A DNA stretch of 63,310 nucleotides, taken from assembly GCA_017648065.1 (NCBI GenBank), contig JAGCJJ010000083.1, positions 1 to 63,310 of the forward strand. The letters run 5' to 3'. Source of the stretch: Kiritimatiellia bacterium. Lineage in GTDB: Bacteria; Verrucomicrobiota; Kiritimatiellia; RFP12; UBA3636. Made by a program: the position numbers and the translations under genes. Positions 14,164 to 30,704 of this stretch are shown here, one piece after another (positions within the stretch are counted from its first letter, which is position 1; the number at the start of each line of letters is the position of its first letter). The notes below the pieces were generated by a model. That model did no database searches. It saw only the letters and a list, made by a program, of their open reading frames with translations, and was not told the origin of the DNA.

Positions 14164-14415
14164 ATGCCAGTATATCACTACGAACCAAAGGAAGAAAACA
14201 CAGGTTGCGAGTTTTGTCGTGATGGATTTGATTATACTCAATCCATTAAGGATGACAAACTGACTCAGTGTCCAGAGTGTGGCTGTGAGATAGTTAAGAC
14301 ACCAGTCGCAGCAGCAATTGGCCGCTCACAATCATGCTTTGATGATAGAGCAAAGGCAGCAGGTTTTTCTAAACTGAAGAAAATTGGTACTGGTGAGTAC
14401 GAAAAACAATACTAA
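14164..14415 (+). CDS. FmdB-family zinc-ribbon protein
   Basis: The MPVYHYEP start and two Cys pairs (CEFC ... CPECG) are typical of the FmdB/CxxC_CxxC_SSSS family. Confidence 0.7.
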   Translation: MPVYHYEPKEENTGCEFCRDGFDYTQSIKDDKLTQCPECGCEIVKTPVAAAIGRSQSCFDDRAKAAGFSKLKKIGTGEYEKQY

Positions 14416-14431
14416 AAAGGGGTAAAAAATT

Positions 14432-15313
14432 ATGAAGGGAATAGTTTTAGCAGGTGGTTCAGGTACACGCTTACATCCAATTACTCTTGCAGTAAGTAAG
14501 CAACTTCTTCCAATTTATGATAAGCCAATGATTTATTATCCAATTTCTGTTCTTATGCTAGCAGGAATTAAAGAAATTCTAATTATTAGCACACCTCATG
14601 ATTTACCTCTTTTTAAGCATTTATTAGGCGATGGTTCACAGTTTGGTGTAAGCTTCTCATATTGTGAGCAGCCAAGCCCAGATGGCCTTGCACAAGCATT
14701 TATCTTAGGTGAAAGCTTCCTTGATGGTGATTCAGCAGCACTTGTGCTTGGTGATAACATTTTCTTTGGAAATGATTTTAAGAAAACAGTCTGTGAAGCA
14801 GCTAAACAAGCAGAGAATGGAGCTTGTGTATTTGGCTATCAAGTAGCAGATCCAGAGCGTTATGGTGTGGTAGAATTTGATAAATCAGGAAAAGTTATTG
14901 GTATTGAAGAAAAGCCTGCTCAACCTAAATCAAATTATGCAGTTCCTGGTTTGTATTTCTACGATAATAATGTTTGCGAATATGCTAAAGCACTTAAGCC
15001 ATCACCTCGTGGTGAACTTGAAATTACAGATTTAAATCTTGAGTATTTGAAGCGTGGAAAACTTCGTGTTCAGTTGTTTAGCCGTGGTATTGCTTGGTTG
15101 GACACCGGTACATATGGCTCTTTGCTTGAGGCTTCTAACTACGTAGAGACAATTCAAAATCGCCAAGGCCTTCAAATTGCTTGTCTTGAAGAAATTGCTT
15201 ACCGTCAAGGCTTTATTACTGCTGATCAGTTGCGTGAGCAGGGTGAGAAGATGAAAAAGAATGCCTATGGAAAATATTTAATTAATGTTGCAGAGGGAAA
15301 ATATGACATTTGA
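14432..15313 (+). CDS. rfbA: glucose-1-phosphate thymidylyltransferase
   Basis: [34 protein letters not shown] and the 293-aa length match RmlA. Confidence 0.95.
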
Positions 15314-15848
15314 GACAACAGATATTAAGGATGTTCTTATTATTCGTCCAAAAACATATCTAGATTCCAGAGGCTATTTTAGAGAACTTACTCGAACAAA
15401 TATTCTTGCAGAGAATGGAATTACAGAAGCATTTGTGCAAACAAATAATTCTTTTTCAACAAAAGGGGTTATTCGTGGAATGCATTATCAGCTAAAGAAT
15501 GCACAATCAAAGCTTGTTTGTGCAACATATGGTGAAATTTACGATGTGATTATTGATCTTCGTAAAGATTCACCAACCTTTGGTAAGTGGGTAGGTGTAA
15601 ATCTTTCTGCTGAACGTGGTGAGTTGTTATATGTTCCAAAAGGCTTTGCTCATGGTTTTCAGGTGCTGAGTGATTTTGCTTCAGTTGTGTATCAATGCAG
15701 CGATTATTTTACACCTACTGATGAATATGGTATCAATTGCTTTTCAAAAGCATTGGGAATTGATTGGAAGGACATTCCATGCGTAATGTCTGATAAGGAT
15801 AAACTTCTTCCAGAATTTTCTGATGTTACGGAAAAACTCTTATTCTGA
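15303..15848 (+). CDS. rfbC: dTDP-4-dehydrorhamnose 3,5-epimerase
   Basis: Cupin fold with RGMHYQ and GFAHGF motifs. ATG 15303 has a GAGGGA RBS and overlaps the rfbA stop by 11 nt. Confidence 0.9.
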
Positions 15849-15877
15849 TAATTTTTTACATTTTTATAAGTAAGTAG

Positions 15878-15935
15878 AACCGAAGATGTGAATAGGATAT
15901 AATCCTAATTTGTATCTTCGGTTTTATTTTATTTC
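15878..15935 (+). terminator. intrinsic terminator after rfbC
   Basis: Stem aaccgaagat / atcttcggtt (15878-15887 / 15914-15923) followed by ttatttt. The loop is long. Confidence 0.5.
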
Positions 15936-16010: not shown

Positions 16011-16079
16011 GTTGTGAAAATGTATGTAGATTGCAAAACTAAATGCACCAAAAGAGGTGCATTTACTTTTGCAAATTAC
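16011..16079 (+). repeat. left boundary element: 15-nt X box plus 54-nt palindromic element R
   Basis: gttgtgaaaatgtat (16011-16025), then gtagattgcaaaactaaatgcaccaaaagaggtgcatttacttttgcaaattac (16026-16079). Arms 16033-16049 and 16056-16072 form a 17-bp stem with one mismatch. The element recurs at 29546-29656. Confidence 0.85.
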
Positions 16080-16263
16080 AAATTATGCAATTTTCCTTAT
16101 AGTTTTTTCTTGCAAAAGATATCTAGGATAGTTTAATATATGAACGAGTTGTAGTTTTATGCTACTTTAAGTCTTTAGTTATAGTGTACTTTTAGTTTTT
16201 AGATTTCATGTCTATTCAATCTTTTGGTAAAAGAGAAAATATATTTAAATATGGTAGTGAAAA

Positions 16264-17265
16264 ATGCCTAGAGTATCAGTTGTGATGCCTGTTTTTAATA
16301 CGAAAACAGAATATTTTAAAGAATCAATAAATAGTATTCTTGGTCAGTCTTTTAACGATTTTGAATTATTGATTATTGATAATGGCTCTGATTGTTATGT
16401 TGCAGATATAGTTAAAAGTTATAGCGATAAAAAAATTAAATATTTTAAATTTGAAAAAAATCAAGGGCCAGCTATTGCGCGTAATAAAGGGATTGATGAA
16501 GCCGAAGGTGAATATATTGCATTCATTGATTCTGATGATATTTCTTTGTCCCAGAGATTAGAAAAACAGGTAGAATTTTTAGATAATAATTTTGATGTAG
16601 GTTGTTTAGGAACTGCATTTGAAGTTATATGTGAAAATCCTAATAAAATGCGACGATTTAACTCTCTTAGAGAACATTTTGAAATTGAGTGCTATTTGGT
16701 TTTTACTGGTTGTACTTTATGCCAAAGTTCAATTATGATAAGAAAATCTATTTTAGATAAATGTAATATACGTTATAGACCGGAATGGGTTCCGTCAGAA
16801 GATTATGGTCTTTTTATAGATTTAGTAGGCAAAACAAAATTTAAAGTTCTTGATGATATTTTGGTAAAATATCGTTTGCATCGCGATAGTACATCTAATT
16901 TATATAAAAAAGAACAAAGAGAAGAAAGTAAAATAATACAAGCGTTTGCAATTAATAAGTATTGTAATATGTCTACTAAGAATAAGAAACTTTTCTCTCG
17001 ATTTATTTTAGATGGTAATCTTAAAAAAAGGGAATTGGTTGAACTTGCCGGTGTAATAAATGATTTGATTACATATTTGTGTGACCATGGTTGTCCTAAA
17101 AATGATGTTATGTATGCGTTAAAGAGAAAGATAAAAAATGTATACTATCACACTCGTTCTTTTCGTGGTCAATGGAATTTAATGGTGTCTCCTATAAATA
17201 AAATCTTTAATCTTTCGCTATTTTGGCGTTTAATGTGTTTAACAACAAGAGGAATTTTCAAATGA
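16264..17265 (+). CDS. glycosyltransferase family 2
   Basis: VSVVMPVFNTKTEYFKESINSILGQS, IIDNGS and the DSDD motif. Confidence 0.85.
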   Translation: MPRVSVVMPVFNTKTEYFKESINSILGQSFNDFELLIIDNGSDCYVADIVKSYSDKKIKYFKFEKNQGPAIARNKGIDEAEGEYIAFIDSDDISLSQRLEKQVEFLDNNFDVGCLGTAFEVICENPNKMRRFNSLREHFEIECYLVFTGCTLCQSSIMIRKSILDKCNIRYRPEWVPSEDYGLFIDLVGKTKFKVLDDILVKYRLHRDSTSNLYKKEQREESKIIQAFAINKYCNMSTKNKKLFSRFILDGNLKKRELVELAGVINDLITYLCDHGCPKNDVMYALKRKIKNVYYHTRSFRGQWNLMVSPINKIFNLSLFWRLMCLTTRGIFK

Positions 17266-18044
17266 AAACACTTATATTAGCAGGAGGTCTCGGAACAAGA
17301 CTAGGTGAAGAAACTAGCGTAAAACCAAAGCCTATGGTAGAAATAGGAGGATTTCCTATTTTATGGCATATAATGAAAATTTACTCTACTTTTGGTTTTA
17401 ATGATTTTGTGATATTGACAGGATATAAGCAAGAAGTGATTAAAAATTACTTTGTTAATTATTACATGAATAATTCAGATATCACTGTTGATTTATCAAC
17501 AAACGCTGTTGAAGTACATCAAACAAGATGTGTTCCATTTAAGGTTACGATGTTATATACAGGACAAAATACACTTACAGCAGGAAGGATTAAACATGCT
17601 CAAGATTTTATTGGGAATGAGCGGTTTATGTTAACTTATGGTGATGGTATTGGTAATGTTAATATCAATGAGTTAATTAGGTGTCACGAACAATCTGGTA
17701 AATTATGCACATTAACTTCTCATCAGCCTGAAGGAAGATTTGGCGCTTTGGCCATTAAAGAAGATGGAATGATTGAAAACTTCTTAGAGAAACCGAAAGA
17801 AAGTGGAATTTGGATTAATGCAGGTTTCTTTGTATGTGAGCCTGAAATTTTTAACTATATTGAAGGTGATGGAATAAATATGATGTGGGAACATGACCCT
17901 TTAAGAAAATTAGCGCGAGATGGACAGCTAAACGCTTACAAGCATCATGGATTTTGGCGTCCTATGGACATGCTAAAAGATAAAGAAGATCTTAATAAAA
18001 TGTGGTCTAATAATACAGCTCCATGGAAGGTTTGGAATGACTAA
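17262..18044 (+). CDS. rfbF: glucose-1-phosphate cytidylyltransferase
   Basis: MKTLILAGGLGTRLGEETSVKPKPMVEIGGFPILWHIMKIY is near-collinear with Salmonella RfbF. ATG 17262 overlaps the GT2 stop (ATGA) and has an AGAGGA RBS. Confidence 0.9.
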   Translation: MKTLILAGGLGTRLGEETSVKPKPMVEIGGFPILWHIMKIYSTFGFNDFVILTGYKQEVIKNYFVNYYMNNSDITVDLSTNAVEVHQTRCVPFKVTMLYTGQNTLTAGRIKHAQDFIGNERFMLTYGDGIGNVNINELIRCHEQSGKLCTLTSHQPEGRFGALAIKEDGMIENFLEKPKESGIWINAGFFVCEPEIFNYIEGDGINMMWEHDPLRKLARDGQLNAYKHHGFWRPMDMLKDKEDLNKMWSNNTAPWKVWND

Positions 18045-18945
18045 TTTAAAAAAAGTATTAGTAACAGGTGGGACAGGTTTTATAGGTCATAATGTTGTTA
18101 ATGAGTTAATTCAACGAGGTTATGAAGTTCATTCTCTCGTTTTCCCACCATTTATGCCAGAGCAACCTAATTTAATTCAGTATGAAATGAATTTAATGGA
18201 TACGGAGGCATTAAAGAGTTTTTTTATCGACCATCGGTTTGAAAGTCTTATTCATCTTGCTTGGTATGTTGGACCTAAATGTCATGTTCATGATTTGAAT
18301 ATGGATTGGTTGATTAGCACATTAAATTTATTAAAATATTTTAAAGAACAAGGTGGTAAGGTGTTTTTAGGGGCAGGAACATGTTCTGAATATGAATATA
18401 AATACGGATATTTATTGGAAGAAGAGACACCTACAGATACTAAGACACTATATGGAAATAGTAAAAATGCTATCTATAACGTAGCAAAAGTATTTTGTAA
18501 ACAAAATGATATTGCATTTAAGTGGCCAAGAATCTTTAATTTATATGGTCCACATGAAAAGCCTCAACGTTTAATGCCTTTTGTAATCAACTCTTGCATA
18601 AATGGAGAAGATGTTAAAGTTAGTGACTGCGTTAAATTTCAAGATTATCTTCATGTAGAAGATACTGCAAGAGGTATTGTAGATGTTTTTGAAAGTGATT
18701 TACAAGGTGCTGTTAATATTTGTTCTGGACAACCAGTTCAATTAAAAACAATTGTAAATAAAATTGCTGAAATTACAAATTTTCATGGGAAAATTCTCTG
18801 GGGAGCTATTCCTGCAGCATTTGGTGATGATTTGGTAGTTGGCAATAATGAAAAACTTAAATCAATTGGCTGGAGACCAAAATATACATTAGAAGAAGGT
18901 CTTCGTCAAACAATTAACTGGTGGAAGGAACATAAAAATGTATAA
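18037..18945 (+). CDS. NAD-dependent epimerase/dehydratase (SDR), probable CDP-4-keto-6-deoxyhexose reductase/epimerase
   Basis: VTGGTGFIGHNV Rossmann motif and a YGNSK catalytic Y-x3-K. It overlaps both rfbF and rfbG. Confidence 0.7.
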   Translation: MTNLKKVLVTGGTGFIGHNVVNELIQRGYEVHSLVFPPFMPEQPNLIQYEMNLMDTEALKSFFIDHRFESLIHLAWYVGPKCHVHDLNMDWLISTLNLLKYFKEQGGKVFLGAGTCSEYEYKYGYLLEEETPTDTKTLYGNSKNAIYNVAKVFCKQNDIAFKWPRIFNLYGPHEKPQRLMPFVINSCINGEDVKVSDCVKFQDYLHVEDTARGIVDVFESDLQGAVNICSGQPVQLKTIVNKIAEITNFHGKILWGAIPAAFGDDLVVGNNEKLKSIGWRPKYTLEEGLRQTINWWKEHKNV

Positions 18946-20017
18946 TACTGTTTATGAAGGAAAAACAGTCTTAGTAACAGGTCATACAGGATTTAAAGGA
19001 TCTTGGCTCTCAATTTGGTTGACACATATGGGAGCAAATGTTGTAGGTTATTCATTAGATCCTTATTCTAATAAAGGTAATTTTGGCGCATCTCATTTGC
19101 ATGATAAACTTTATGCTGATGTTCGTGGTGATACCCGTGATTTGGTTCATCTAGACGAGGTTGTAAAAAAATATCAACCAGAGATAGTGTTTCATTTGGC
19201 TGCACAAGCTCTTGTTCGTACATCTTATGAACAACCAAGAGAAACTTTTGAAACAAATATTATGGGCAGCCTTAATGTAATGGAAGTTATGCGTAATAAT
19301 GATTGTCTCAAAACAGCTATAATGATTACTTCCGATAAATGTTATGAAAATGTTGAGCAGATATGGGGATATAAAGAGACAGATCGCATGGGAGGCGAAG
19401 ATCCTTATTCAGCCTCCAAAGGTTGTACCGAATTGATGCTTCACGCATATCGTCAGTCTTTTTTCAATCCTGAAAAATATGCTGTTCATGGTAAAGCTGT
19501 TGCCATTGTTAGAGCTGGTAATGTTATTGGCGGTGGAGATTGGTCGGATAATCGTTTGATCCCTGATTGTATCCGTTTCATCGAGGCTGGTAAACCTATT
19601 GAAATTAGAAATCCAATTGCAACTCGTCCTTGGGAACACGTTTTAGAGCCTTTGTCAGGATATCTCAAGGTTGGCCAAAAATTGTTGGAAGATCCTGTAA
19701 AATATGCTACAGCGTTTAACTTTGGACCTCATATTTCAGCTAACAAGACTGTTTTAGAAGTTACCCGTCGTTTGGTTGAATATTATGGTAAAGGCGAAGT
19801 TGTAGATGCATCAGATCCTAATGCTGTACATGAAAATACATTGCTTAATTTGGATGTTACCAAAGCTTATGTAATGTTACAGTGGGAAGCTAAGTGGGGT
19901 TTACAAGAAATGATTGAAAAGACTGTAGATTGGTATAAAGAAGCTCTCACTTCTGATGATATGTGGGATTTTTGTGTAAAACAAATTTTAGATCATGGAG
20001 AACATCTTGCCAAATAA
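18938..20017 (+). CDS. rfbG: CDP-glucose 4,6-dehydratase
   Basis: VLVTGHTGFKGSWLSIWL, YSASK, and a 359-aa length typical of RfbG. Confidence 0.9.
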   Translation: MYNTVYEGKTVLVTGHTGFKGSWLSIWLTHMGANVVGYSLDPYSNKGNFGASHLHDKLYADVRGDTRDLVHLDEVVKKYQPEIVFHLAAQALVRTSYEQPRETFETNIMGSLNVMEVMRNNDCLKTAIMITSDKCYENVEQIWGYKETDRMGGEDPYSASKGCTELMLHAYRQSFFNPEKYAVHGKAVAIVRAGNVIGGGDWSDNRLIPDCIRFIEAGKPIEIRNPIATRPWEHVLEPLSGYLKVGQKLLEDPVKYATAFNFGPHISANKTVLEVTRRLVEYYGKGEVVDASDPNAVHENTLLNLDVTKAYVMLQWEAKWGLQEMIEKTVDWYKEALTSDDMWDFCVKQILDHGEHLAK

Positions 20018-21269
20018 TATAGTTTTGGGTGCCGGAATAGCAGGAATTTCGGCATCCTATCATCTTAAGCAAAAAGGTATAGAAAGCACCATCTATGAAA
20101 AAGATAGTGATTGGGGTGGTTTGTGTGGTTTTTTTGAAATAGAAGGCTTTAGATTTGATCGTTTTGTGCATTTTACGTTTACAAAAGAGGAATACATTGC
20201 TAACATTTTTGAAAAATCATCTCCATTATATGCTCATCCATCAATATCATACAATTACTATAACGGTGCTTGGCTAAAACATCCGGCAATCAATAATCTA
20301 GCTCAATTATCTTCTGAAGAAAAAACTCAAATCATCACTGATTTTGTTAATCGACCTCAAAAAGACGTGTCAGAAATTAAAAACTATGATGAGTGGTTGA
20401 GAGTTCAGAATGGTAATTATTTTGCAGAACATTTTCCTTTTCCATATACTAGAAAATATTGGGGGCAAGAACCAAAGGATATGGAAACAAGATGGATTGG
20501 CAATCGTATTCGTTCTGCGGCACTTGATGAAGTTTTACGAGGAGCTTTTGAAGAGCAAGAACAAAATTTCTATTATACAAGTTACATGAAATATCCGAAA
20601 AAAGGTGGATTTAGGAGTATTCTTAATCATTGCCGTAATGGATTAGATATACACTTTAATAAGAATGTTGTTCGGATAGATTCTCGCAATAAGGCAGTAT
20701 ACTTTGCTGATGGATGTCATGAACAATATGACCGCCTCATCTCATCTTTGCCATTGCCTGAAATTGTCAAGATAATTGATGATTGCCCAGCAGAAGTATT
20801 GGAAGCTGCAGAAAAATTGCATTGGACTAGTGGTTATCAGATATCTCTTGGTTTCAATCGACCTGATGTCGCAAAACATTTGTGGTTTTATATTTATGAT
20901 GAAGATGTAATGCCGGCAAGAGTATATTCGCCAAACTTAAAATCCTCGGATAATGCGCCTGAGGGTTGTTCTTCTTTGCAAGCAGAAGTGTTTTTTGATT
21001 GTAAAGCAGAAATTCCATTATCAAGTGTGGTATTAGAGAATACAATTAGCCGATTAAAGGAAATATGCAATTTTGTCGATAAAGATATAGTGGTTAAAGA
21101 TATCCGTTTTGAAAAATATGCAAATGTTACATTTACTCACGAGATTTATGAAAATCGTCAGATAATTTTAGATTATTTGAAATCTGAAGGAATTGATTCA
21201 ATAGGACGCTTTGGAAAATGGGATTATCTTTGGACGTTTCAAGCGTTTAAAACTGGAATGGAAATATAG
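19995..21269 (+). CDS. FAD/NAD(P)-binding oxidoreductase (amine-oxidase / pyranose-mutase-like fold)
   Basis: N-terminal dinucleotide-binding motif VLGAGIAGISASYHL, then YEKDSDWGG. The C-terminal GRFGKWDY resembles the end of Glf/amine-oxidase-type flavoenzymes. It overlaps rfbG by 23 nt. Confidence 0.6.
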   Translation: MENILPNNIVLGAGIAGISASYHLKQKGIESTIYEKDSDWGGLCGFFEIEGFRFDRFVHFTFTKEEYIANIFEKSSPLYAHPSISYNYYNGAWLKHPAINNLAQLSSEEKTQIITDFVNRPQKDVSEIKNYDEWLRVQNGNYFAEHFPFPYTRKYWGQEPKDMETRWIGNRIRSAALDEVLRGAFEEQEQNFYYTSYMKYPKKGGFRSILNHCRNGLDIHFNKNVVRIDSRNKAVYFADGCHEQYDRLISSLPLPEIVKIIDDCPAEVLEAAEKLHWTSGYQISLGFNRPDVAKHLWFYIYDEDVMPARVYSPNLKSSDNAPEGCSSLQAEVFFDCKAEIPLSSVVLENTISRLKEICNFVDKDIVVKDIRFEKYANVTFTHEIYENRQIILDYLKSEGIDSIGRFGKWDYLWTFQAFKTGMEI

Positions 21270-22433
21270 ATGATAAAAATTAGAGAAATTATTAGCTTCA
21301 AAATATTAAAAATTGCATTTTTAGTATTACAACATTTTTTTAAAAAAACATGTTATATATGTGTTGATAATATGTATGAAAAACATGCAAGTTGTATTGA
21401 TACATATTCTTTATTTGAATATTTACGAGCTAATAAAAAAGAGGCATATTATTTAATATGGAAAGAAAATTTGTCATATAAAACAAAAAAAACAGAGGGA
21501 GTTATTACATTTAATCGTCAGGGGGATCCTGATTCTTCAAGCTATTATTTTTTAAAGAAAACTTTTTGGCAATTGTTAAAATGTAAATATGTTGTTTCTT
21601 CTTTTTATGGTTCATTGCCTACAAAATATAGAAGTTTTTTAAAAAATAACAAATATATTCAACTTGTTGGAGTTGGACATGGTCCAGTTTTTTTAAAAAC
21701 ATTAGTTTTTGATTATCCTTTTTGTCAAGAGCAAGAATGGGATAGATATTTAGTAACTAATGATGAAGAAAAAAATATATTTTTAGCAAATGGTTGGCCA
21801 GAATCAAAGTTAATTTTAAATGGATTACCTAGGTATGATTGTTGTGTAAATACCCCCCATAAACAAAAGAAAATTTTTATATTTTTTACTTGGAGATTGA
21901 CTTTCGAAAAAGAAAGAAATAGTATTTACACATCCAAATATTTAAATAAATTATATAAGTTATTAAATAATACTGAATTAAATATTTATATAAAAAAATA
22001 TGATATAAAAGTTGTTATAGGTCTTCATCATGCATTGATTGATATTGTTAGAATGAAAGTACCAAATTTTCCTTTTGAGGTTGCTGATTCAACAAATTTA
22101 ATTGAAGAAATAAATACATCAGATTTGTTTATTACAGATTATTCATCAATATTTTTTGATTCTGCATATTTAGACCATCCTTGTATTTTCTATAGGCTAG
22201 ACGATAAAGATCGATTTCTAATTGATATAGATATTCAAGATAGAGATAATATGAAAGAAAAAGATAGTCAGTTATATAATGTATTTTATGAAGAGAGTCA
22301 AGTCATAGAAAAAATAAAATATTATATAACAAATGATTTTCAATTAGAAAAAAATAATAAATCTAAAATGAACAAATTTTTTATTCAGAGAAAAAACAAT
22401 ATTCCAACATTTATTGAGACTTTAGAGAAATAA
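21270..22433 (+). CDS. CDP-glycerol glycerophosphotransferase (TagB/TagF) family protein
   Basis: FTWR, GLHHAL and LFITDYSSIFFDSAYLDHPCIFYRLDD match Glyphos_transf hallmarks. The ATG directly follows the upstream stop. Confidence 0.8.
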   Translation: MIKIREIISFKILKIAFLVLQHFFKKTCYICVDNMYEKHASCIDTYSLFEYLRANKKEAYYLIWKENLSYKTKKTEGVITFNRQGDPDSSSYYFLKKTFWQLLKCKYVVSSFYGSLPTKYRSFLKNNKYIQLVGVGHGPVFLKTLVFDYPFCQEQEWDRYLVTNDEEKNIFLANGWPESKLILNGLPRYDCCVNTPHKQKKIFIFFTWRLTFEKERNSIYTSKYLNKLYKLLNNTELNIYIKKYDIKVVIGLHHALIDIVRMKVPNFPFEVADSTNLIEEINTSDLFITDYSSIFFDSAYLDHPCIFYRLDDKDRFLIDIDIQDRDNMKEKDSQLYNVFYEESQVIEKIKYYITNDFQLEKNNKSKMNKFFIQRKNNIPTFIETLEK

Positions 22434-24295
22434 TGAATACAAAAATATTAATCACATATAAAGATAATTACGAAAAAATAGAAAATGAGATATTAACTCC
22501 TATTCAAACTGGGCGTGCCATTTCTAATGAAATTTTTGACGGTATGATAGGAGATGATACAGGAGATAATATCTCTTCTGAAAATAATAAATATAGTGAA
22601 TTAAGTGCTCAATATTGGGCTTGGAAAAATTATGAAGAATTAGGGAATCCTGATTATATTGGGCATATGCAATATCGTAGGCATTTTATTTTTAATAAGA
22701 ATGCAAGTTTTAGTATGCATACACCTAAAGAGCAAATTAATGGGTTTTCGGTTAAATTTGTTGAAAATCTAACAGATGATTATATCAAAAATATAGGTTT
22801 AGATGAGAATACCATTACTTCTGGAATCGAGAATCTAGATATTGTAGTTGTTAAAAAGTCTAATATGAGATATATTGGATGTAAAAATGCTAAAGAAGAT
22901 TTTTTAAAACATGTACCGGGTTCTCAAGAAACAGATTATAATATATTAAAAAATATCTTATTAAAAAATCATCCTAATTATATTAACGTATTAGATAAAT
23001 TAGAAAATGAACCATACAGACATTTTTATCATATGTTTGTAATGAAGCGAGAAATATTTTTTGAGTATTGTTCTTTTATTTTTCCCCTATTAAAAGAAAT
23101 TGATGGATTAATAGATTATTCTTATCGAGGAACTCGAGGTGGTCGTGTTTTAGGATATTTGGGAGAAATGCTCTTATGTTTATTTGTATTTAAGAAACAT
23201 GAAGAGGGTATGCAAATAGGTGAGTATTATTCTACAGTGATATTGAAGAATAAAAAAAATAATACAATAATTAAAAAACAATGTAATGTTTGTGATGAAA
23301 AAAAAGAAGATAGGTGTGTTGTATACAACATTGATAATTTAAATTTTTATCATGCATTAGCTTCTATATTTTCGCTAAATCAATATTTGGTCGATAATAA
23401 ATCCTATGATTTAGTTATTTTGTATAGTAATTTAAATCCAAAACAGTTGAATTATATAAATTCAATGATTATTGATAGGTTTAATAATATTATTATAAAA
23501 AACGATGAAGAGGTTTTTCATGAAAATGAAATTCTTAATAACCATTCTTTTTTGAAATCTCTTTATTTTTTAAAAAATTATAGAAATATTGTTTATATAA
23601 ATTCAAGACTTCGTTTTAATAATATAACTAATTTTTCACAATTTGAAAATGATAAAATTAGGGTTTCTAAACACCCTCAAAATGCAAAAATCATAAATAT
23701 CGAACCGAACACAATGAAGTATATTTCTAATATCTTAGAATTAGACGATCCATACAAATATTTTATAGATGATATAATATTTATTAATACGTGTCTGATA
23801 GACTTTGAAACAATAAATGAAAAAGTAAAAACAGATTTAACTTTTATAACCAAACAAATCGATATACTTAATTATATTTTTAATAAAGAAATAACATATC
23901 TTCCTGAAAATTATGTAATGGAGATTTCTTTGGCAGAACGTAAAAAATATTTTTCAAATGATGAATATGATAATGTTTTCAATAAATGCATTTGTTTCTA
24001 TAAGCCTATAGATGATCATTTGATAGGTGTTTTAAAATATATAAAAAACACTCCTTTTTATGAAGAGATATTGTTTGAATCGATAATAAATATTATTGGG
24101 GAAAAGGAACATGAGACTAAATTGTTATTTGTAATGAATAACATAGTTAAATTTAAGTTAAAAAAAGCATTATATCGCATAAAAAAGAGATTTTATTCCG
24201 GCAGAAAACAAGAAAAATATCAGAAAAAATATGATATAGTCAAAAAACTTATCAAAGAAGCAAAGCATCATAATAAATCTTTATTTAAGTTTTAA
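22433..24295 (+). CDS. DUF4422 domain protein fused to a degenerate GT8-like C-terminal domain
   Basis: The N-terminus (ILITYKD..PIQTGRA..GDNISSENNKYSELSAQYWAWKN..HMQYRRHF) is the DUF4422 signature. The C-terminal 330 aa are collinear with the GT8 half and tail of the 24810-27146 product (TPFYEEI..KKALYRIKK..EAKHH). Confidence 0.75.
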   Translation: MNTKILITYKDNYEKIENEILTPIQTGRAISNEIFDGMIGDDTGDNISSENNKYSELSAQYWAWKNYEELGNPDYIGHMQYRRHFIFNKNASFSMHTPKEQINGFSVKFVENLTDDYIKNIGLDENTITSGIENLDIVVVKKSNMRYIGCKNAKEDFLKHVPGSQETDYNILKNILLKNHPNYINVLDKLENEPYRHFYHMFVMKREIFFEYCSFIFPLLKEIDGLIDYSYRGTRGGRVLGYLGEMLLCLFVFKKHEEGMQIGEYYSTVILKNKKNNTIIKKQCNVCDEKKEDRCVVYNIDNLNFYHALASIFSLNQYLVDNKSYDLVILYSNLNPKQLNYINSMIIDRFNNIIIKNDEEVFHENEILNNHSFLKSLYFLKNYRNIVYINSRLRFNNITNFSQFENDKIRVSKHPQNAKIINIEPNTMKYISNILELDDPYKYFIDDIIFINTCLIDFETINEKVKTDLTFITKQIDILNYIFNKEITYLPENYVMEISLAERKKYFSNDEYDNVFNKCICFYKPIDDHLIGVLKYIKNTPFYEEILFESIINIIGEKEHETKLLFVMNNIVKFKLKKALYRIKKRFYSGRKQEKYQKKYDIVKKLIKEAKHHNKSLFKF

Positions 24296-24296
24296 T

Positions 24297-24623
24297 ATGA
24301 AAAATATTAGAATATTTGTGACCTATCACGATGATCATTATAGGATTAAGTCTAATATCCTTGAACCTATTCAGACAGGTTGTATTAATGCACCAAAATT
24401 GTTTGATGGTATGTTGCGTGATGATATCGGTGATAATATCTCGGATAAAAATGACAAATATTGTGAACTTTCCGCTCAGTATTGGGTTTGGAAGAATTAT
24501 GATAAAGTCGGAGTTCCTGATTATATTGGTTTTATGCATTATCGTAGACATTTTATATCTGATAATTGGCAAGGTTTTCCTGATTGGAGCTGGTTGCCTA
24601 AAGGAAATATGCATTTTTGTTGA
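24297..24623 (+). pseudogene. truncated DUF4422 gene fragment, chimeric at its 3' end
   Basis: 108 codons are ~60% identical to the N-terminus of the 22433 gene. From about 24599 the DNA becomes homologous to the 3' part of the FAD oxidoreductase gene, read in another frame, and stops. Confidence 0.75.
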
Positions 24624-24808
24624 AAACGATATACGTGGTTAAAGATATTCGTTTTGAAAATATGCAAATGTAACATTTATCCACAAGATATTTGAAAACG
24701 ATTAAATAATTTTAGGTTATTTAAAATTGTAAAGAATTGATCCAAAAGGACGCTTCGGGGAATTTGATTATCTCTAGACGTTTCAAGTGTTTAAAACTGG
24801 AATTGAAA
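24599..24808 (+). pseudogene. degraded copy of the 3' end of the FAD oxidoreductase gene
   Basis: Aligns by eye to 21055-21269 (taaaggaaatatgca...gtttaaaactggaat) with substitutions, indels and in-frame stops. Confidence 0.85.
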
Positions 24809-24809
24809 T

Positions 24810-27146
24810 ATGAAAATGAGAAAAAAAATTTATATTAAAGATTTAGGAATATCTATTTCATTAAAAAATAAGCGTAAATATTTTGAATTAATTGAAAAAT
24901 TGCAGAAAGAAGTAACTCAGGACACATATTTGTTAATGGATAATTTGTATGAAGAATCTGCTTCATGTATAGATACATACTCTTTATTTTTATATTTAAA
25001 ACAAAATGGGTATAAAGCAAAATATATTTTATATAAGAAAAATTCTTTATATCAAGAATTAAAAGAAAAAGGTGAATTAGAAGATATTATTGTTGCTGAT
25101 GAATCTTCTTTAACTGGACATGATTTATATGAAAAAATATTTTTTACTTTAATAGTAACAAAGTATATTATATTATCATTCCCTGAATCTTTATATGAAG
25201 ATATTAGAATTTTTGCTTATAAAAATCGTTCTATTCAAGTTTTAATGATTGGACACGGGCCTGTTTTCTTTAAAACATCTTTATTAGATTTTAAAAAAAC
25301 AAATTATTTAGCTCCAGAAAGATTTAATTTATATTTAGTTTCTAGCTTAAAAGAAAAAAACTTATTAGTTCGCGCCGGATGGCCTGCTGATAGAATCTTT
25401 AATATAGGTTTACCTCGCTTTGATTGGTGTAAAAAGAAAAAGCATGCAGAGAAAAATATAGTTATAATGTTTACTTGGAGATTAGATTCGTTTAGAAAAC
25501 TTTCAAATGCAAAAGATTTAAAATATTTTGAAAAGTTTGATTCCCTCCTAAATAATAAAACGCTTCAAGATATTGCAAAAACAAATGGTTATAAAGTAAC
25601 TATAGCATTACACCATTCAATAAAAGATTTATGTAGTATTGATATAAAAGTTCCTAAATGTTTTGAAATCGCCGATACTAATAATTTAATTGAATACATC
25701 AATACAGCGGATTTATTTATTACTGATTATTCAAGTATTGTGCATGATTTTATGTTTTTAAATACTCCTGTAATTTTTTATAGACTTGATTATGGAGATC
25801 CTTTATTGTGCGAATTTGATAAATATGATTTAGAAGAATGTAAAGAAAAAGATTCTCAAATTTTTAATGTTTTTTATGAAGAAAAAGATTTAATAGGAAA
25901 AATTGAATATTACATAAATAATAATTTTACATTGGAACCAGAGTATAAAGAAATCGAAGATTCTTTCTTTACAGAAAAAAAAGATATTTGTAAAAAACTT
26001 GTTGAACAATTAGAATGCTATACACCGACTAATTTTGAAAATATTGTTGTCGAACCAAACTGGAAAGATGTTAAAACTGCAATTTGTGTAAGTTCATCTG
26101 ATGAGTATTTACCATATTTATGTGTGTATTTAAAATCTATAACAAAATATACAGTTGCAAAAAAAGATGTTATAGTTTTCAATCGTTGCATTTCAGAAGC
26201 AAATAAAGAAAAATTGTTAAAATGTTTCTCAGATGATGATAGTTTTTCAATTAGATTTATTGATCCATCGCCTTTATTCAGAGATATAAATTTATATGTT
26301 TCGCATGATTACTTTAAAGAAGAATGTTATTATAGAATTGCTGCACCTAAATTGCTAAACAAATATGACAAAATAGTATTTACAGATTTAGATTTAATTG
26401 TACAAGATGATATTTTAAAGCTTGCAGATATAAATCTAGAAGGTCATCCAATCGCGGCATGCATTGAACCTCTATGGCGAGAGTTATATATGCATAATAA
26501 TAAAATAGAAGGTAGAAGAATTCGCGCTTATTCAAATGATGTTTTGAAATTATCTAATCCATTCAATTATTATAACACTGGTGTTGTTGTATTTGATGTT
26601 AAAGAATATAATAGATTAAATTCATTTGATATAATATGTGATATTGTTAATCAAAATCAGTTGTTATATCAAGAGCAATGTGCTTTAAATATATTATTTA
26701 ATAATAATTTCTATACCCTACCTAATGTTTGGAATTATGAATTAGCTCCTTCGTTAATAAACAATAAATATAATTTTGATTTTTATAATGAATATAAATC
26801 ACAAGAAAAAAATGCTAAAATATTGCATTACCTAGGGAGGTATAAACCTTGGAAAAATCAATTAGAATATAAAGCTGATATTTGGTGGGAATATGCAAGA
26901 AGAACTCCTTTTTATGAAGAAATTTTTGCTCAATTACTAGATGCTAAGATTTCTCAAAATAAAAAGGAAATAAGGTTAAGATGTGTTGCACATCATATGG
27001 CTAAATTTATGTTCAAAAAAGCATTATATCGCATCATGAAAACTTTTTATTTCGGTAAAAAAAATAAAGAATATCAATTAAAATATGATAAAGTAAAAAC
27101 CCTTATTAGAGAAGCAAAGCATTATAAAAAAATATTTAAGTTTTAA
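24810..27146 (+). CDS. two-domain enzyme: TagF-like CDP-alcohol phosphotransferase domain plus GT8 glycosyltransferase domain
   Basis: The N-terminal half is a paralogue of the 21270 gene (FTWR, ALHHSI, LFITDYSSIVHDFMFLNTPVIFYRLD). The C-terminal half carries GT8 marks (FTDLDLIVQDD DxD, YYNTGVVVFDV, HYLGRYKPW). Confidence 0.85.
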   Translation: MKMRKKIYIKDLGISISLKNKRKYFELIEKLQKEVTQDTYLLMDNLYEESASCIDTYSLFLYLKQNGYKAKYILYKKNSLYQELKEKGELEDIIVADESSLTGHDLYEKIFFTLIVTKYIILSFPESLYEDIRIFAYKNRSIQVLMIGHGPVFFKTSLLDFKKTNYLAPERFNLYLVSSLKEKNLLVRAGWPADRIFNIGLPRFDWCKKKKHAEKNIVIMFTWRLDSFRKLSNAKDLKYFEKFDSLLNNKTLQDIAKTNGYKVTIALHHSIKDLCSIDIKVPKCFEIADTNNLIEYINTADLFITDYSSIVHDFMFLNTPVIFYRLDYGDPLLCEFDKYDLEECKEKDSQIFNVFYEEKDLIGKIEYYINNNFTLEPEYKEIEDSFFTEKKDICKKLVEQLECYTPTNFENIVVEPNWKDVKTAICVSSSDEYLPYLCVYLKSITKYTVAKKDVIVFNRCISEANKEKLLKCFSDDDSFSIRFIDPSPLFRDINLYVSHDYFKEECYYRIAAPKLLNKYDKIVFTDLDLIVQDDILKLADINLEGHPIAACIEPLWRELYMHNNKIEGRRIRAYSNDVLKLSNPFNYYNTGVVVFDVKEYNRLNSFDIICDIVNQNQLLYQEQCALNILFNNNFYTLPNVWNYELAPSLINNKYNFDFYNEYKSQEKNAKILHYLGRYKPWKNQLEYKADIWWEYARRTPFYEEIFAQLLDAKISQNKKEIRLRCVAHHMAKFMFKKALYRIMKTFYFGKKNKEYQLKYDKVKTLIREAKHYKKIFKF

Positions 27147-27147
27147 G

Positions 27148-27272
27148 ATGGCAAATATTTAAATATTTGTATTTTCTCATGATGAATATTGTGAGCTTTC
27201 TGTACTATACTAATATATGGAGAATTATGTTAAAACCTAATTACTAATTATGCCAGTTTTATGTATTATCAA
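27148..27272 (+). pseudogene. heavily degraded DUF4422 gene start
   Basis: atggcaaatatttaaatatttgt... aligns to the start of 24297, with an internal deletion of ~100 nt and stop codons. It sits 1 nt after the upstream stop, the same position as 24297. Confidence 0.6.
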
Positions 27273-27412
27273 AAATACTCTTTTGTTTAATAATTTGGTG
27301 ATCTAATAGGTTTATAAGTAAAATTACTTTTTGTGAAAAAGGAGATGTTTAAGAAAAATCAGATGAAGATTTTTATTAGGAACAAAAATTAACATTAACA
27401 GTTTTAGAGTAA

Positions 27413-29179
27413 ATGAAGAATATGAATTTAATAAAAAATATAAAACAATCTAATTTGATTCAAAATTATTCAAAATTTTTCCCTTATGTGAAGCCATATT
27501 TATGGCAAGCGATTCTTGCAATTTTAGTAACATTACCATTAGGAGCTATGGATGCTGTTATCGCTTGGGTTTTGAAGCCCTATACGGATGTTGTAATGAT
27601 AGAGCGAAGTGCAAAAGCAACATCTTTTCTTCCTCTTTTGGTTATTATATTCAGTTTTGCCCAAAGCTTTTTAAATTATGCTGCTACCTATTTAAATACC
27701 TGGGTTGGTCAAAAAATTACAATGGACTTGAAATTAAGTTTATTTAAAAAATTAATGCGTTATGATCCGCGTTTTTTTGACAAGTCAACTTCTGGTGTTA
27801 TAATATATAAATTTAATCATGATGCAGAAATGGCATCTAGTGGATTATTAGCTAATCTTAAAGTGTTTACGACAAGGCTATTCTCATCAATTTCTTTAAT
27901 TGTTGTATTAATTTATAATTCATGGCAGTTGTCAATTATTGCAATAGTAATATTATTTGGTGCTTTATATCCATTAACTAAAGTCAGAAAAAAGATTAAA
28001 GGGATTATGGATAAAACAATTTTCTCTGGAGCCCAAGTAATGACACATTATAATGAGGCGTTTAGTGGGAATAGAGTAATATCATCCTTTAACTTATATG
28101 AATATCAAGAAAAACGTTTTAGTAATACTTTACAATCTGTTTTTAAATTAGGCATGAATATGACTAAGAAAACAGGTATTGTTTCTCCTATGATGCATTT
28201 TATTGTTTCAATAGGAATTGCAGGTGTTATTTGGTTAGGTGGGTGGTTAATTTCACATAATCAATTGACTCCAGGAGGGTTTGTATCTTTTATAACAGCT
28301 TTATTAATGTTATATCATCCTATAAAATCTATTGGTTCTAATTATACAAATGTGCAAATGTCTCTTTTAGCAATGGAACGAGTTTTTTCTTCTTTAGAAT
28401 CTAAACCAAGTATAAAAAATAAAGACACAGCAATTAAATTAGAAGATATTAAATCAGATATCGTTTTTGAAAATGTTTGTTTTGAATATGATGCTAATAG
28501 ACCAATATTAAAAAATGTTTCTTTAAAAATTGCAAAGGGTCAAACCGTTGCGTTTGTTGGAAATTCTGGAGGAGGAAAAACAACTTTAGTAAATTTATTG
28601 CCAAGATTTTATGACGTAAAAAAAGGCGCTGTAAAAATCGATGGGCATGATGTTCGAGATATAGATATTGATTCTTTGAGAAATATGATTTCTATTGTTT
28701 TTCAGGATAATATTTTATTTTCAGGAACAATTAGAGATAATATTTTACTTGGAAAAACCTCTGCTACAAATGAAGAAATATGGAAGGCGGTTAAATCGGC
28801 TTGTTTGGAGGAATTTATTTCATCATTGCCTTTGGGGTTAGATACCGAGATTGGTGAACGAGGTACAAAACTTTCTGGTGGTCAAAAACAACGAGTTGCT
28901 ATTGCTAGAGCTTTTTTGAAAAATGCTCCGATTGTTATCTTGGATGAAGCAACATCTGCATTGGATAATAAATCAGAAGAAATTGTTCAACAAGCAATTT
29001 ATAATCTAATGGAAGATCGAACAGTATTTGTGATTGCTCATAGGTTGTCTACTGTTAAAAATGCTGATAATATTGTTGTAATTGATCATGGACAAATTCG
29101 AGAACAAGGAACACATGAAGAATTGTTGAAAAAAGAAGATTCTGTATATGCAAAATTATATAAAACCCAATTAAAGTAG
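27413..29179 (+). CDS. ABC transporter permease/ATP-binding protein (MsbA-like half transporter)
   Basis: Six-TM N-terminal domain. Walker A GNSGGGKTT, LSGGQKQR signature, Walker B ILDEATSALD. Confidence 0.9.
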   Translation: MKNMNLIKNIKQSNLIQNYSKFFPYVKPYLWQAILAILVTLPLGAMDAVIAWVLKPYTDVVMIERSAKATSFLPLLVIIFSFAQSFLNYAATYLNTWVGQKITMDLKLSLFKKLMRYDPRFFDKSTSGVIIYKFNHDAEMASSGLLANLKVFTTRLFSSISLIVVLIYNSWQLSIIAIVILFGALYPLTKVRKKIKGIMDKTIFSGAQVMTHYNEAFSGNRVISSFNLYEYQEKRFSNTLQSVFKLGMNMTKKTGIVSPMMHFIVSIGIAGVIWLGGWLISHNQLTPGGFVSFITALLMLYHPIKSIGSNYTNVQMSLLAMERVFSSLESKPSIKNKDTAIKLEDIKSDIVFENVCFEYDANRPILKNVSLKIAKGQTVAFVGNSGGGKTTLVNLLPRFYDVKKGAVKIDGHDVRDIDIDSLRNMISIVFQDNILFSGTIRDNILLGKTSATNEEIWKAVKSACLEEFISSLPLGLDTEIGERGTKLSGGQKQRVAIARAFLKNAPIVILDEATSALDNKSEEIVQQAIYNLMEDRTVFVIAHRLSTVKNADNIVVIDHGQIREQGTHEELLKKEDSVYAKLYKTQLK

Positions 29180-29260
29180 GATAATGTTACTTTCGACTAA
29201 AATTTAGGATTTTCACAGGATTTTGAATAAAGAATTTTATGAAAATATTTTATTAGTCAG

Positions 29261-29299
29261 TCTTGCTAGTGTGTTTTAAACACTAGCAAGATTTTTTTA
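29261..29299 (+). terminator. intrinsic terminator after the ABC transporter gene
   Basis: 12-bp stem tcttgctagtgt / acactagcaaga followed by T7. Confidence 0.75.
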
Positions 29300-29545
29300 C
29301 TTTAAGAAGAATGTCTATAATATTCAATAATCTATCAGTGCGGTATAGTAAATTCGTTTCAAATGTACTTTTACAAAATATAACAGGAATTGGCGCGGCA
29401 ACTTCTGGCTTCCTTTTAGCAAAAAATTTCTTCAGGATATAATTTTCTTGTATTGTCAGTTGCTTCTTTTAACTTAAGAAATTTCAGGTTCTATCGTCAA
29501 GTCAGGAGAATTCGTATAACTTAATGTGATTCATTAATTTTAAGT

Positions 29546-29656
29546 GTAGATTGCAAAACTAAATGCACCTTTGTGCGACTAAACGCACCTGTTTTGCGAC
29601 TAAATGCACCAAAAGAGGTGCATTTACTTTTGCAAATTACTGTTGTGAAAATGTAT
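29546..29656 (+). repeat. right boundary element: expanded R (three tandem half-sites) plus X box
   Basis: 29546-29569 and 29611-29640 are identical to the two halves of 16026-16079. The 41 nt between them are two more ~20-nt units ending in gcacc. gttgtgaaaatgtat follows at 29642-29656. Confidence 0.85.
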
Positions 29657-29699: not shown

Positions 29700-30704
29700 A
29701 TGGGAGACTATTTATATATGTGTAAAGATACTAACAGTAATAATAAAATATCTACAAAAGAATTACTGAAGCGAGGTCTGCTAATCGCTTTGGCAATCGC
29801 CTCTTTATTTGTTTCTTCAGGTTTGGCATTGGCATTTGGTCTTGTATTTGCATTGTTATTCGGCTCTGTATGGAGTAAACCAGTAAAGAAACTATCAAAA
29901 TATTTACTTCAGTTTTGCGTAGTAGGTATTGGCTTTGGTATGAATTTAGTTGAATCACTAAAGTCAGGCAAAGAAGGAATGCTTTTTACGATTGTGTCTG
30001 TTGCAGTAGTAATGGTTGTAGGTATGCTATTTGCCAGAATGTTAAAGGTAGATAGAAAGGCAGGATACCTTGTTTCCTCAGGTACTGCAATTTGCGGTGG
30101 AAGTGCAATCGCAGCTACAGCTCCGGTTGTTAAAGCAAATGACAATCAAATATCTGTTGCGCTTGGTACTGTATTTGTGCTTAATGCAATAGCATTGTTT
30201 ATTTTCCCATATATGGGCTATCATTGGCTTAATATGAATCAACTTGAGTTTGGAGAGTGGGCTGCAATCGCAATTCATGATACAAGCTCTGTAGTAGGTG
30301 CTGCCGCTGCCTTTGATGCAAGTTATTTTGCAAATACATCTACACCTAATGTAGCTTTGGAAACAGCAACTCTGATTAAACTTACTCGCGCTCTTTGGAT
30401 AATTCCTCTTGCTTTAGTAACAATGTTTATCTTCAAAGAAAAGGGTAGTAAAATTTCTATTCCTTGGTTTATCTTGTGGTTTGTCGTCGCTATGATAATC
30501 AATACCTATTGTGGACTTCCAGAGTGTATTTCAAAATTTTTAGTGATGATTAGTAAGCGTGGCCTTGCATTGACAATTTTCTTGATTGGAACTGGACTTA
30601 GCGTAAAGACAATCAAGGAGGTTGGACCTCGTCCACTTGTTCAAGGTGTGCTTTTGTGGTTAGTTATTGGCACAATGAGTGCTGCAGTAATTAAATTGAT
30701 GTAG
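29700..30704 (+). CDS. YeiH/UPF0324 family membrane protein (putative sulfate exporter family)
   Basis: Polytopic, with the SSGTAICGGSAIAATAP motif characteristic of YeiH-like proteins. The start could be ATG 29718. Confidence 0.75.
   Translation: MGDYLYMCKDTNSNNKISTKELLKRGLLIALAIASLFVSSGLALAFGLVFALLFGSVWSKPVKKLSKYLLQFCVVGIGFGMNLVESLKSGKEGMLFTIVSVAVVMVVGMLFARMLKVDRKAGYLVSSGTAICGGSAIAATAPVVKANDNQISVALGTVFVLNAIALFIFPYMGYHWLNMNQLEFGEWAAIAIHDTSSVVGAAAAFDASYFANTSTPNVALETATLIKLTRALWIIPLALVTMFIFKEKGSKISIPWFILWFVVAMIINTYCGLPECISKFLVMISKRGLALTIFLIGTGLSVKTIKEVGPRPLVQGVLLWLVIGTMSAAVIKLM

Follow-up and report, generated by a model that had tools for sequence, protein, structure and literature searches.

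Insertion sequences (ISs) of the IS30 family normally duplicate 2-3 bp of their target, the composite transposon Tn6330 duplicates 2 bp, and the rfb and cps loci of enterobacteria are low-G+C cassettes that are exchanged horizontally through homologous conserved flanking genes. Segments that have MITEs (miniature inverted-repeat transposable elements) on both sides can be mobilised, as exemplified by class 1 integrons lying between identical MITEs in Acinetobacter (PMC10969869). Tn6330 itself, with the structure ISApl1-mcr-1-ISApl1, has been described as an IS30-family composite transposon (PMC5821093). Here we describe a 63,310-nt stretch of DNA of an uncultured gut Kiritimatiellia bacterium (contig JAGCJJ010000083.1, positions 1-63,310, assembly GCA_017648065.1; the window hereafter means this whole stretch), in which two direct copies of a short palindromic element, R, bracket a block of surface-glycan genes, one on each side (Table 1). 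A short sequence, X, adjoins the outer ends of the pair. We propose that positions 16025-29641 are probably a transposase-delivered unit, a horizontally acquired glycan cluster of ~13.5 kb bounded by two direct MITEs.

R is a MITE derived from an IS30-like element

R (gtagattgcaaaactaaatgcacc + aaaagaggtgcatttacttttgcaaattac) lies at 16026-16079 and recurs at 29546-29640 with identical halves, between which 41 nt (29570-29610) are inserted. Its arm matched four places in the window and none in shuffled sequence. X (gttgtgaaaatgtat) occurs exactly twice in the window, at 16011-16025, where it abuts the left R, and at 29642-29656, where it begins 1 nt past the right R. These positions, the two halves and the insert had been reported in a first-pass annotation of the window, and they proved correct to the base. 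When the two copies are delimited by the TGT...ACA ends of the MITE family described below, they take the coordinates given in Table 1, and the duplicated flank becomes 14 nt (gttgtgaaaatgta), or 15 nt when the terminal T is counted. The arms of R are 25 nt long and 88% complementary, forming with their TGT...ACA ends terminal inverted repeats, and the element folds into an imperfect 24-bp hairpin (z = -6.7 to -8.4). The 41 extra nucleotides of the right copy comprise two additional degenerate copies of the left-arm core (repeat family D6). They sit between 12-nt direct repeats (ACTAAATGCACC), so the left R equals the right R minus one repeat interval. Rfam covariance models gave no match at gathering score anywhere in the window.

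We analyzed the distribution of a 19-nt arm (TTGCAAAA(C/G)TAAATGCACC) across 185,579 species genomes, with one genome for each bacterial or archaeal species, and identified 72 sites. Forty-eight of them lay within six gut metagenome-assembled genomes (MAGs) labelled Kiritimatiellia, Kiritimatiellae, Lentisphaeria or Verrucomicrobia (JAZNPC01, 23; CALDQE01, 9; JAFUOX01, 7; JAFPBK01, 6; two Lentisphaeria MAGs, 3). The other 24 were singletons in unrelated taxa, and 17 of these fell inside long open frames. A looser core pattern (AAATGCACC N4-8 GGTGCATTT) returned only chance hairpins in unrelated taxa of the genome collection, and the two matches of the arm in viral contigs were both chance matches in coding sequence. 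R-family copies measure 56, 76, 97 or 148-168 nt, have TGT...ACA ends and contain no open reading frame (ORF); a 20-nt unit is arranged in them as forward-reverse, forward-forward-reverse or longer series. The neighbouring genes are unrelated to one another, including a MarR-like regulator with an ABC-F ATPase, argS, a tRNA, genes for very large surface proteins and glycosyltransferases. The 56-nt element that forms the left R is also present in other MAGs (L148, L157, L161, L162, L164 and L332).

Target duplications of 13-15 nt, such as ataataattttcac and cgtttcgccgaagg, flank 8 of the 22 complete R-family copies, whereas in controls with flanks displaced by 25-55 nt none of 88 reached even 8 nt. 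The duplications are nearly fixed in length at 13-15 bp, and their targets are non-palindromic. The dispersal of the copies, together with duplications that the controls do not reproduce, identifies R as a MITE family with a target duplication of ~14 bp.

Several observations concern the behaviour of this family in assemblies and genomes. Two contigs of one assembly share an overlap consisting of exactly the 55-nt R; the assembly graph thus branches at R, which hints at more identical R copies in this organism. Contigs L128, L134, L153 and L170 of JAZNPC01, as well as many contigs of PDWI01 and PDWJ01, end 70-260 nt inside R-family elements; assemblies of gut MAGs from the Kiritimatiellia clade often break at such repeats. 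At one orthologous R copy, the JAFUOX01 contig L161 (232-7671) carries 7.4 kb with ORFs of 199, 1504 and 676 aa directly to the left, while the JAZNPC01 contig L162 (1465-1632) has 170 nt and the left target duplication instead. Here, for a second time, variable DNA adjoins an R copy, but there is no second R.

Scanning metagenome contigs for the R arm yielded many further MITEs and several full-length elements. Three of the latter (L378, L333 and L355) are ISs of ~2 kb that end in the same 19-25 nt as the R family and carry inner copies of the unit. Each encodes a 429-aa transposase, and those of L378 and L355 scored 102.8 and 115.7 bits against the NCBIfam IS30 profile (cutoff 80 bits). The same scan revealed a clade-specific parent, L357, whose left end, preceded by a 433-nt host flank similar to the CALDQE MAG, reads TGTAGATTGCAAAACTAAATGCACC-ATTGTGCGACTAAACGCACC-TGTTTT and continues into a 456-aa IS30-like ORF. 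Aligned at full length, this transposase shares 35% identity with the L378 enzyme. The L357 contig breaks off 70-80 nt before the right end of the IS, and its last 74 nt correspond to the interior of the 148-nt MITE L171 (98.6% over 71 nt), whose right terminus reads ...TGTTTTGCGACTAAATGCACCAAAAGAGGTGCATTTACTTTTGCAAATTACA, or at greater length ...CCCTGTTTTGCGACTAAATGCACCAAAAGAGGTGCATTTACTTTTGCAAATTACA. The 97-nt right R is exactly the left end of L357 joined to the L171/L357 right end at the shared TGTTTT, and further loss of sequence between CTAAA(T/C)GCACC repeats accounts for the 76-nt and 56-nt forms. R is a MITE, an internal-deletion derivative of an IS30-like IS of gut Kiritimatiellia. 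The 20-nt repeats that it retains beside the terminal inverted repeats are presumably transposase-binding sites. Contig ends of JAZNPC01 extend ~200 nt into the interior of the L357-type IS, and full-length copies of the parent probably exist in this MAG, unassembled.

The 13-15 bp duplication of the R family is longer than the 2-3 bp typical of IS30 elements. Homologues of the L378 transposase were mostly clostridial, and none was labelled Kiritimatiellia. In Clostridium thermosuccinogenes (GCA_002896995), an IS30-family IS of ~1.78 kb is present in several copies (L395-L398); its transposase (P0298) is 50% identical to that of L378, which, rather than L357, was the element compared. The ends of this IS (GTTTAATTGAAAAAGT...CCAC) and its inner TTTGCAAAAGTAAAT repeats form a motif common with the R family. 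Three copies (L396, L397 and L398) are flanked by perfect 13-bp duplications (tatccacgcaatt, ccttttatatgct and ttttatattttaa). One copy splits a LacI-family gene. Duplicated junctions of 16-26 bp are attributed to IS1630, another member of the IS30 family, in an article citing the original description (PMC3317919, citing Calcutt et al. 1999). Taken together, the 13-bp duplications in C. thermosuccinogenes and those of IS1630 indicate that a long-duplication IS30 subgroup is real, and the R family fits this subgroup and not the family norm. A casposon-like origin, which had been considered for duplications of 14-15 bp, was dropped once the ends of R had been traced to an IS30-type parent.

A shared outer duplication around foreign cargo

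Neither R copy in the window has a target duplication of its own (0 nt each); at the outer ends of the two copies, 14-15 nt match. We estimate the probability of such an outer match by chance at ~1e-8 per register from the base composition of the window. A duplication confined to the outer ends, with none at either single copy, is the mark expected of a single insertion of the entire R-cargo-R unit. X had been treated in the first-pass annotation as an independent box, yet it has the length and the position of the family's target-site duplication. The right X aligns with the DNA upstream of yeiH in sister species (TGATTTGTAAAATATATTTGTTT... in L196 and the corresponding stretch in L198) and is therefore native. 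Homology of the left flank to the same upstream regions extends only 5 nt beyond X, which is not significant.

The bracketed DNA differs from its surroundings. All ORFs between the R copies lie on the + strand and are glycan-related. G+C content is 28.5% in 16025-29641 and 40.0% in the rest of the window, and at third codon positions the values are 17.9% and 30.1%. The block is itself mosaic, with CDP-sugar genes at 31.5-36.8% G+C and the TagF-like, DUF4422 and family-8 glycosyltransferase genes at 22.7-24.3%. The co-oriented glycan genes and the low, mosaic G+C content had both been recognized in the first-pass annotation, and our measurements agree with it. The cassette was found in no related Kiritimatiellia genome, and its central gene reached at most 34% identity in species genomes. 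The best relatives of the cargo, at 47-80% aa identity, were located on metagenome contigs of 26-27% G+C from other organisms. On those contigs the same genes are found together but R is missing, with aa identities of 69% for the cytidylyltransferase, 79% for the epimerase, 72% for the dehydratase, 64-71% for the FAD oxidoreductase, 61-80% for the TagF-like protein and 47-63% for the DUF4422 protein. The cargo is of foreign composition. The idea of a horizontally acquired cassette whose borders fall exactly at the two R copies holds, and what has to be revised is the nature of R and X.

Under the whole-unit transposition that we favor, a full-length IS of the L357 type located elsewhere would have supplied the transposase in trans, acting on the outer end of each R. 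The segment would have inserted into promoter-proximal DNA upstream of yeiH, where a staggered cut would have duplicated the 14 bp gttgtgaaaatgta that make up X. The ancestral site would have read rmlC...ACGTTTTG-GTTGTGAAAATGTA-TTTGTTTATC...yeiH, without R. An R-cargo-R composite transposon may have moved as such, or a single R on a circular donor may have transposed replicatively and so formed a cointegrate; the sequence does not separate the two. Later, the left R may have lost 41 nt by slippage between the 12-nt direct repeats, or the right R may have gained them. The two copies would remain a substrate for homologous deletion, with X-R-X as the product, as the first-pass annotation had also reasoned for recombination between them.

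Several observations weigh against this interpretation. Only 8 of the 22 complete R-family copies keep a duplication, and the right R of the window ends in ACT, not ACA. The transposase of L357 scored 72 bits (E = 6.5e-20), below the 80-bit cutoff of the IS30 profile. A scan for IS30 transposases matched nothing in the window or among genome-collection loci L001-L311, a set that contains loci L121-L198 of the related MAGs. That scan took in the near-identical contigs L276-L279, and L192-L195 and L405-L408 duplicate regions of the window. A second copy of the unit was not found elsewhere, the best DUF4422 relatives being at most 64% identical with no R nearby, and among the loci examined no further R pair had an outer duplication in common. 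The search turned up neither an empty nor an alternative site: the three closest species diverge upstream of yeiH, and the 24-mer junction pattern was absent from JGI metagenomes. An X-R...R-X arrangement would, moreover, also result from an R-bearing circle recombining into a resident X-R-X. Beside solitary R ends (L122, L126, L155 and L158), a search for a transposase found only housekeeping and surface-protein genes.

The last of the sequence arrangements just mentioned leads to the main rival, a Campbell-type homologous integration. R would first have inserted upstream of yeiH to give X-R-X, and a glycan circle with one R would later have recombined into it through identical stretches of 24-42 nt, R acting only as portable homology. 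The final structure would be identical to the one observed. The arms of both R copies match base for base, R marks rearrangement points elsewhere (7.4 kb in L161 versus 170 nt in L162), and MITEs are known as hotspots of homologous recombination (PMC10969869), all of which this model accommodates. It needs two events, however, as well as a circular donor that happened to carry R; the identical stretches are short (no more than 42 nt), and neither an X-R-X site nor a circle was seen in the same-species contigs or the JGI metagenomes. We regard this route as unlikely, while taking it seriously. If instead two MITEs had inserted independently around a cluster that arrived by other means, X would be an unrelated local duplication or a chance match. 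MITE copies are indeed common in the intergenic DNA of this clade, but the lack of an own duplication at either copy, the exact match of 14-15 nt precisely at the element ends and the restriction of X to these two places in 63 kb make such a coincidence most improbable.

Two further explanations turn on the nature of R itself. The first-pass annotation had assigned R a dedicated role as the border of an exchangeable glycan cassette, where it would act as a recombination site or as a shared operator. R does stand at both borders, intergenic, after terminators and before the next gene, and it is a strong palindrome. However, R is a dispersed IS30-derived MITE and a generic intergenic repeat (46 of the 50 R-family copies in gut MAGs are intergenic). 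The family is scattered over numerous unrelated sites (next to argS, a MarR-like gene, a tRNA and genes for large surface proteins), carries target duplications and derives from an IS by internal deletion; nor does the block contain a recombinase, and no other cassette turned up between these elements. A dedicated border is accordingly very unlikely. Short, palindromic, intergenic and multi-copy elements also recall repetitive extragenic palindromic (REP) sequences or bacterial interspersed mosaic elements (BIMEs) spread by a REP-associated tyrosine transposase (RAYT, an IS200/IS605-like Y1 transposase), and the R copies of the window begin with GTAG. Yet GTAG is not conserved in the family, whose head varies (GTAGA, GTTAT, GTAAT), REPs lack target duplications of the 13-15 nt kind, and the ends of R match a full-length IS encoding an IS30-type DDE transposase. 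An origin of this kind can be set aside as extremely improbable. Insertion of the whole unit by a transposase is the reading that we carry forward.

Gene content and surroundings of the block

Table 1. Elements, cargo genes and adjoining native genes in the 63,310-nt window
Feature	Position	Strand	Basis and remarks
rmlA (glucose-1-phosphate thymidylyltransferase)	14432..15313	+	Pfam NTP_transferase, 251 bits; left flank, outside the unit
rmlC (dTDP-4-dehydrorhamnose 3,5-epimerase)	15303..15848	+	Pfam dTDP_sugar_isom, 205 bits; last native gene on the left
Left target-site duplication copy	16011..16024	+	gttgtgaaaatgta, X minus its last T; exact repeat of 29642-29655
Left R	16025..16080	+	56-nt minimal MITE (TGTAGA...AATTACA); two 25-nt inverted arms, 6-nt loop
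Family-2 glycosyltransferase	16264..17265	+	Pfam Glycos_transf_2, 117 bits
Glucose-1-phosphate cytidylyltransferase (rfbF-like)	17262..18044	+	NCBIfam TIGR02623, 363.7 bits (cutoff 300); start from gene call
NAD-dependent sugar epimerase/reductase	18037..18945	+	Pfam Epimerase, 119 bits; 79% aa identity to the L391 gene
CDP-glucose 4,6-dehydratase (rfbG-like)	18938..20017	+	NCBIfam TIGR02622, 474 bits (cutoff 278)
FAD-dependent oxidoreductase (amine-oxidase-like)	19995..21269	+	Pfam Amino_oxidase, NAD_binding_8; beside CDP-sugar genes in L391 and L394
TagF-like CDP-alditol phosphotransferase	21270..22433	+	Pfam Glyphos_transf, 59 bits; 80% aa identity to L394
DUF4422 protein (putative glycosyltransferase)	22433..24295	+	Pfam DUF4422, 178 bits; best relatives outside the strain at most 64%
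Truncated remnant of a second DUF4422 gene	24297..24623	+	Profile match limited to the N-terminal 83 of 220 positions
Fused TagF-like and family-8 glycosyltransferase	24810..27146	+	Pfam Glyphos_transf, Glyco_transf_8; diverged duplicate of the 21.0-24.3 kb segment (D2-D5)
MsbA-like fused ABC exporter	27422..29179	+	TIGR02203, 546 bits (below the 602 cutoff); Pfam ABC_membrane, ABC_tran
Right R	29545..29641	+	97-nt MITE; site order three forward, one reverse; last base T instead of A
Right target-site duplication copy	29642..29655	+	Native sequence upstream of yeiH; aligns with L196 and L198
YeiH-like membrane protein	29700..30704	+	PF03601; first native gene on the right

The genes of the block are listed in Table 1; their predicted product would be a glycan that is linked by alditol phosphate and contains a CDP-6-deoxyhexose-derived sugar. 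Pfam and NCBIfam profiles detected no integrase, transposase or recombinase domain in any ORF of the block, in line with what the first-pass annotation had noted, and there are no tRNA genes in the window. An integrase-type genomic island was rejected on the absence of both. The 108-aa ORF that follows the DUF4422 gene is 77% identical in amino acid sequence to the start of a 318-aa gene in L394; it corresponds to the N-terminal third of a DUF4422 gene and matches only that part of the profile, which marks it as a truncated remnant within the cassette. An old segmental duplication relates 21056-24340 to 24600-27190. The repeated parts are the FAD-oxidoreductase gene's 3' end, the TagF-like gene and the last part of the DUF4422 gene, which return 2.85-3.59 kb downstream at 70-96% nt identity (repeat families D2-D5, D11 and D18), and the second TagF-like copy is fused to a family-8 glycosyltransferase domain.

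Two independent assemblies, made from different samples with different assemblers, break at the same position near 17600 (~17599-17605), in the cytidylyltransferase gene, and one contig begins at 25054 within the cassette. These breaks could reflect strain variation inside the cassette or sequence common to other members of the community. A hairpin with a T-run at ~15876-15930 (pair I5) follows rmlC, ~100 nt 5' of the left R, and a terminator-like hairpin at 29259-29293 follows the ABC exporter, ~250 nt 5' of the right R. Given these gaps, the earlier description of each R as lying just downstream of a terminator is only loosely true, although the hairpins are present.

On the left, 14164-15848 forms a mini-module of rmlA and rmlC with a Zn-ribbon gene and with no rmlB or rmlD nearby; the start of rmlC was taken from a 181-aa gene call on identical contigs. 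The Zn-ribbon-rmlA-rmlC module is kept at 79% nt identity in a relative (L382; RmlA 94% identical), in another neighbourhood, with an LPG-synthase-like gene after rmlC instead of the cassette. On the right, nucleotide synteny with three related species starts at the yeiH side and continues for ~7.8 kb downstream, and no synteny with other species extends across the site of the block. The DNA upstream of yeiH is a synteny breakpoint in every related species (L196, 9100-9900; L197, 9400-9990; L198, 1-440). In JAFUOX01 this stretch holds a 1965-aa ORF together with a simple-repeat tract (ttcattcttcatt..., ctgtcaaact...); JAZNPC01 has a gene for a small secreted protein there, and CALDQE01 has a tRNA-like sequence. 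Farther downstream, tandem paralogues of the beta-lactamase family (PF00144; 33096-34310 and 34332-35534) share ~70-76% nt identity, and the pair is kept in three related species.

The first-pass annotation had suggested searching related strains for an empty site or a different cassette. Exact-protein look-ups with YeiH, RmlA and the family-2 glycosyltransferase retrieved four to five metagenomic contigs of the same species, all 99.9% identical and all carrying the same structure; neither an empty site nor a different cassette was seen among them.

Significance and comparison with known systems

Surface glycans govern the encounters of gut bacteria with phages, the immune system and neighbours. 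The sequence evidence presented here indicates that a whole pathway of 13.5 kb may be insertable in one step by means of two relics of ~60-100 nt and a transposase from elsewhere. More broadly, pairs of R-family MITEs might be a general vehicle that captures and relocates whole surface-glycan clusters in gut Kiritimatiellia and other bacteria of the Planctomycetes-Verrucomicrobia-Chlamydiae group, driven by an IS30-subgroup transposase that cuts with a ~14-bp stagger and has relatives in gut Firmicutes. We consider this generalization improbable; if it were true, transposition, and not the exchange of homologous flanks, would drive surface-glycan variation in this phylum. What the analysis adds is a previously undescribed MITE family, the tracing of its IS30-type parent and the documentation of an IS30 subgroup with duplications of 13-14 bp. 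The definition of the family also helps to annotate MAGs whose assemblies break at R-type repeats.

Like O-antigen and capsule loci, the block is a low-G+C, mosaic, co-oriented glycan cluster adjoining rml genes. Unlike the rfb and cps loci, it has as its borders transposon ends with a duplicated target, and the site showed no alternative cassette. R resembles REPs and BIMEs in being a short, multi-copy, intergenic palindrome with units that are sometimes clustered, but those elements have neither target duplications nor a DDE-type parent IS, and R has both.

Closer parallels are found among IS30-type elements. As IS1630 of Mycoplasma fermentans is presented in the citing article, it too is an IS30-type element with unusually long duplicated junctions (16-26 bp), beside which the R family has nearly fixed duplications of 13-15 bp and non-palindromic targets. 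The IS of C. thermosuccinogenes, with its cysteine-rich IS30 transposase of ~430 aa and its 13-bp duplications, shares with the R family the end motif ATTG(A/C)AAAAGT...CAC and the inner TTTGCAAAAGTAAAT repeats; unlike R, it is full-length and autonomous, resides in a Firmicute and has no association with cargo. In Tn6330, IS30-family ends in direct orientation likewise enclose the cargo, the entire unit is mobile, and the flanking copies may later decay or be lost. Tn6330 has full-length ISs with their own transposase; the ends here are MITEs of 56 and 97 nt that lack one, with a duplication of 14 bp.

The MITE-flanked integrons of Acinetobacter offer the nearest architecture. In both cases, two direct, short, non-coding elements with terminal inverted repeats bracket the cargo, one target duplication surrounds the whole unit, and the transposase acts in trans, as we infer for the present locus. 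The cargo here is a 13.5-kb surface-glycan cluster rather than an integron or a resistance gene, and the host is an uncultured gut member of the Kiritimatiellia. The MITE is derived from an IS30-type element, its duplication measures 14 bp, the two copies differ by 41 nt, and no second location of the unit is known. Mobilisation between MITEs is already established, and the present locus would place it in a new setting, an understudied phylum with an unusual cargo.

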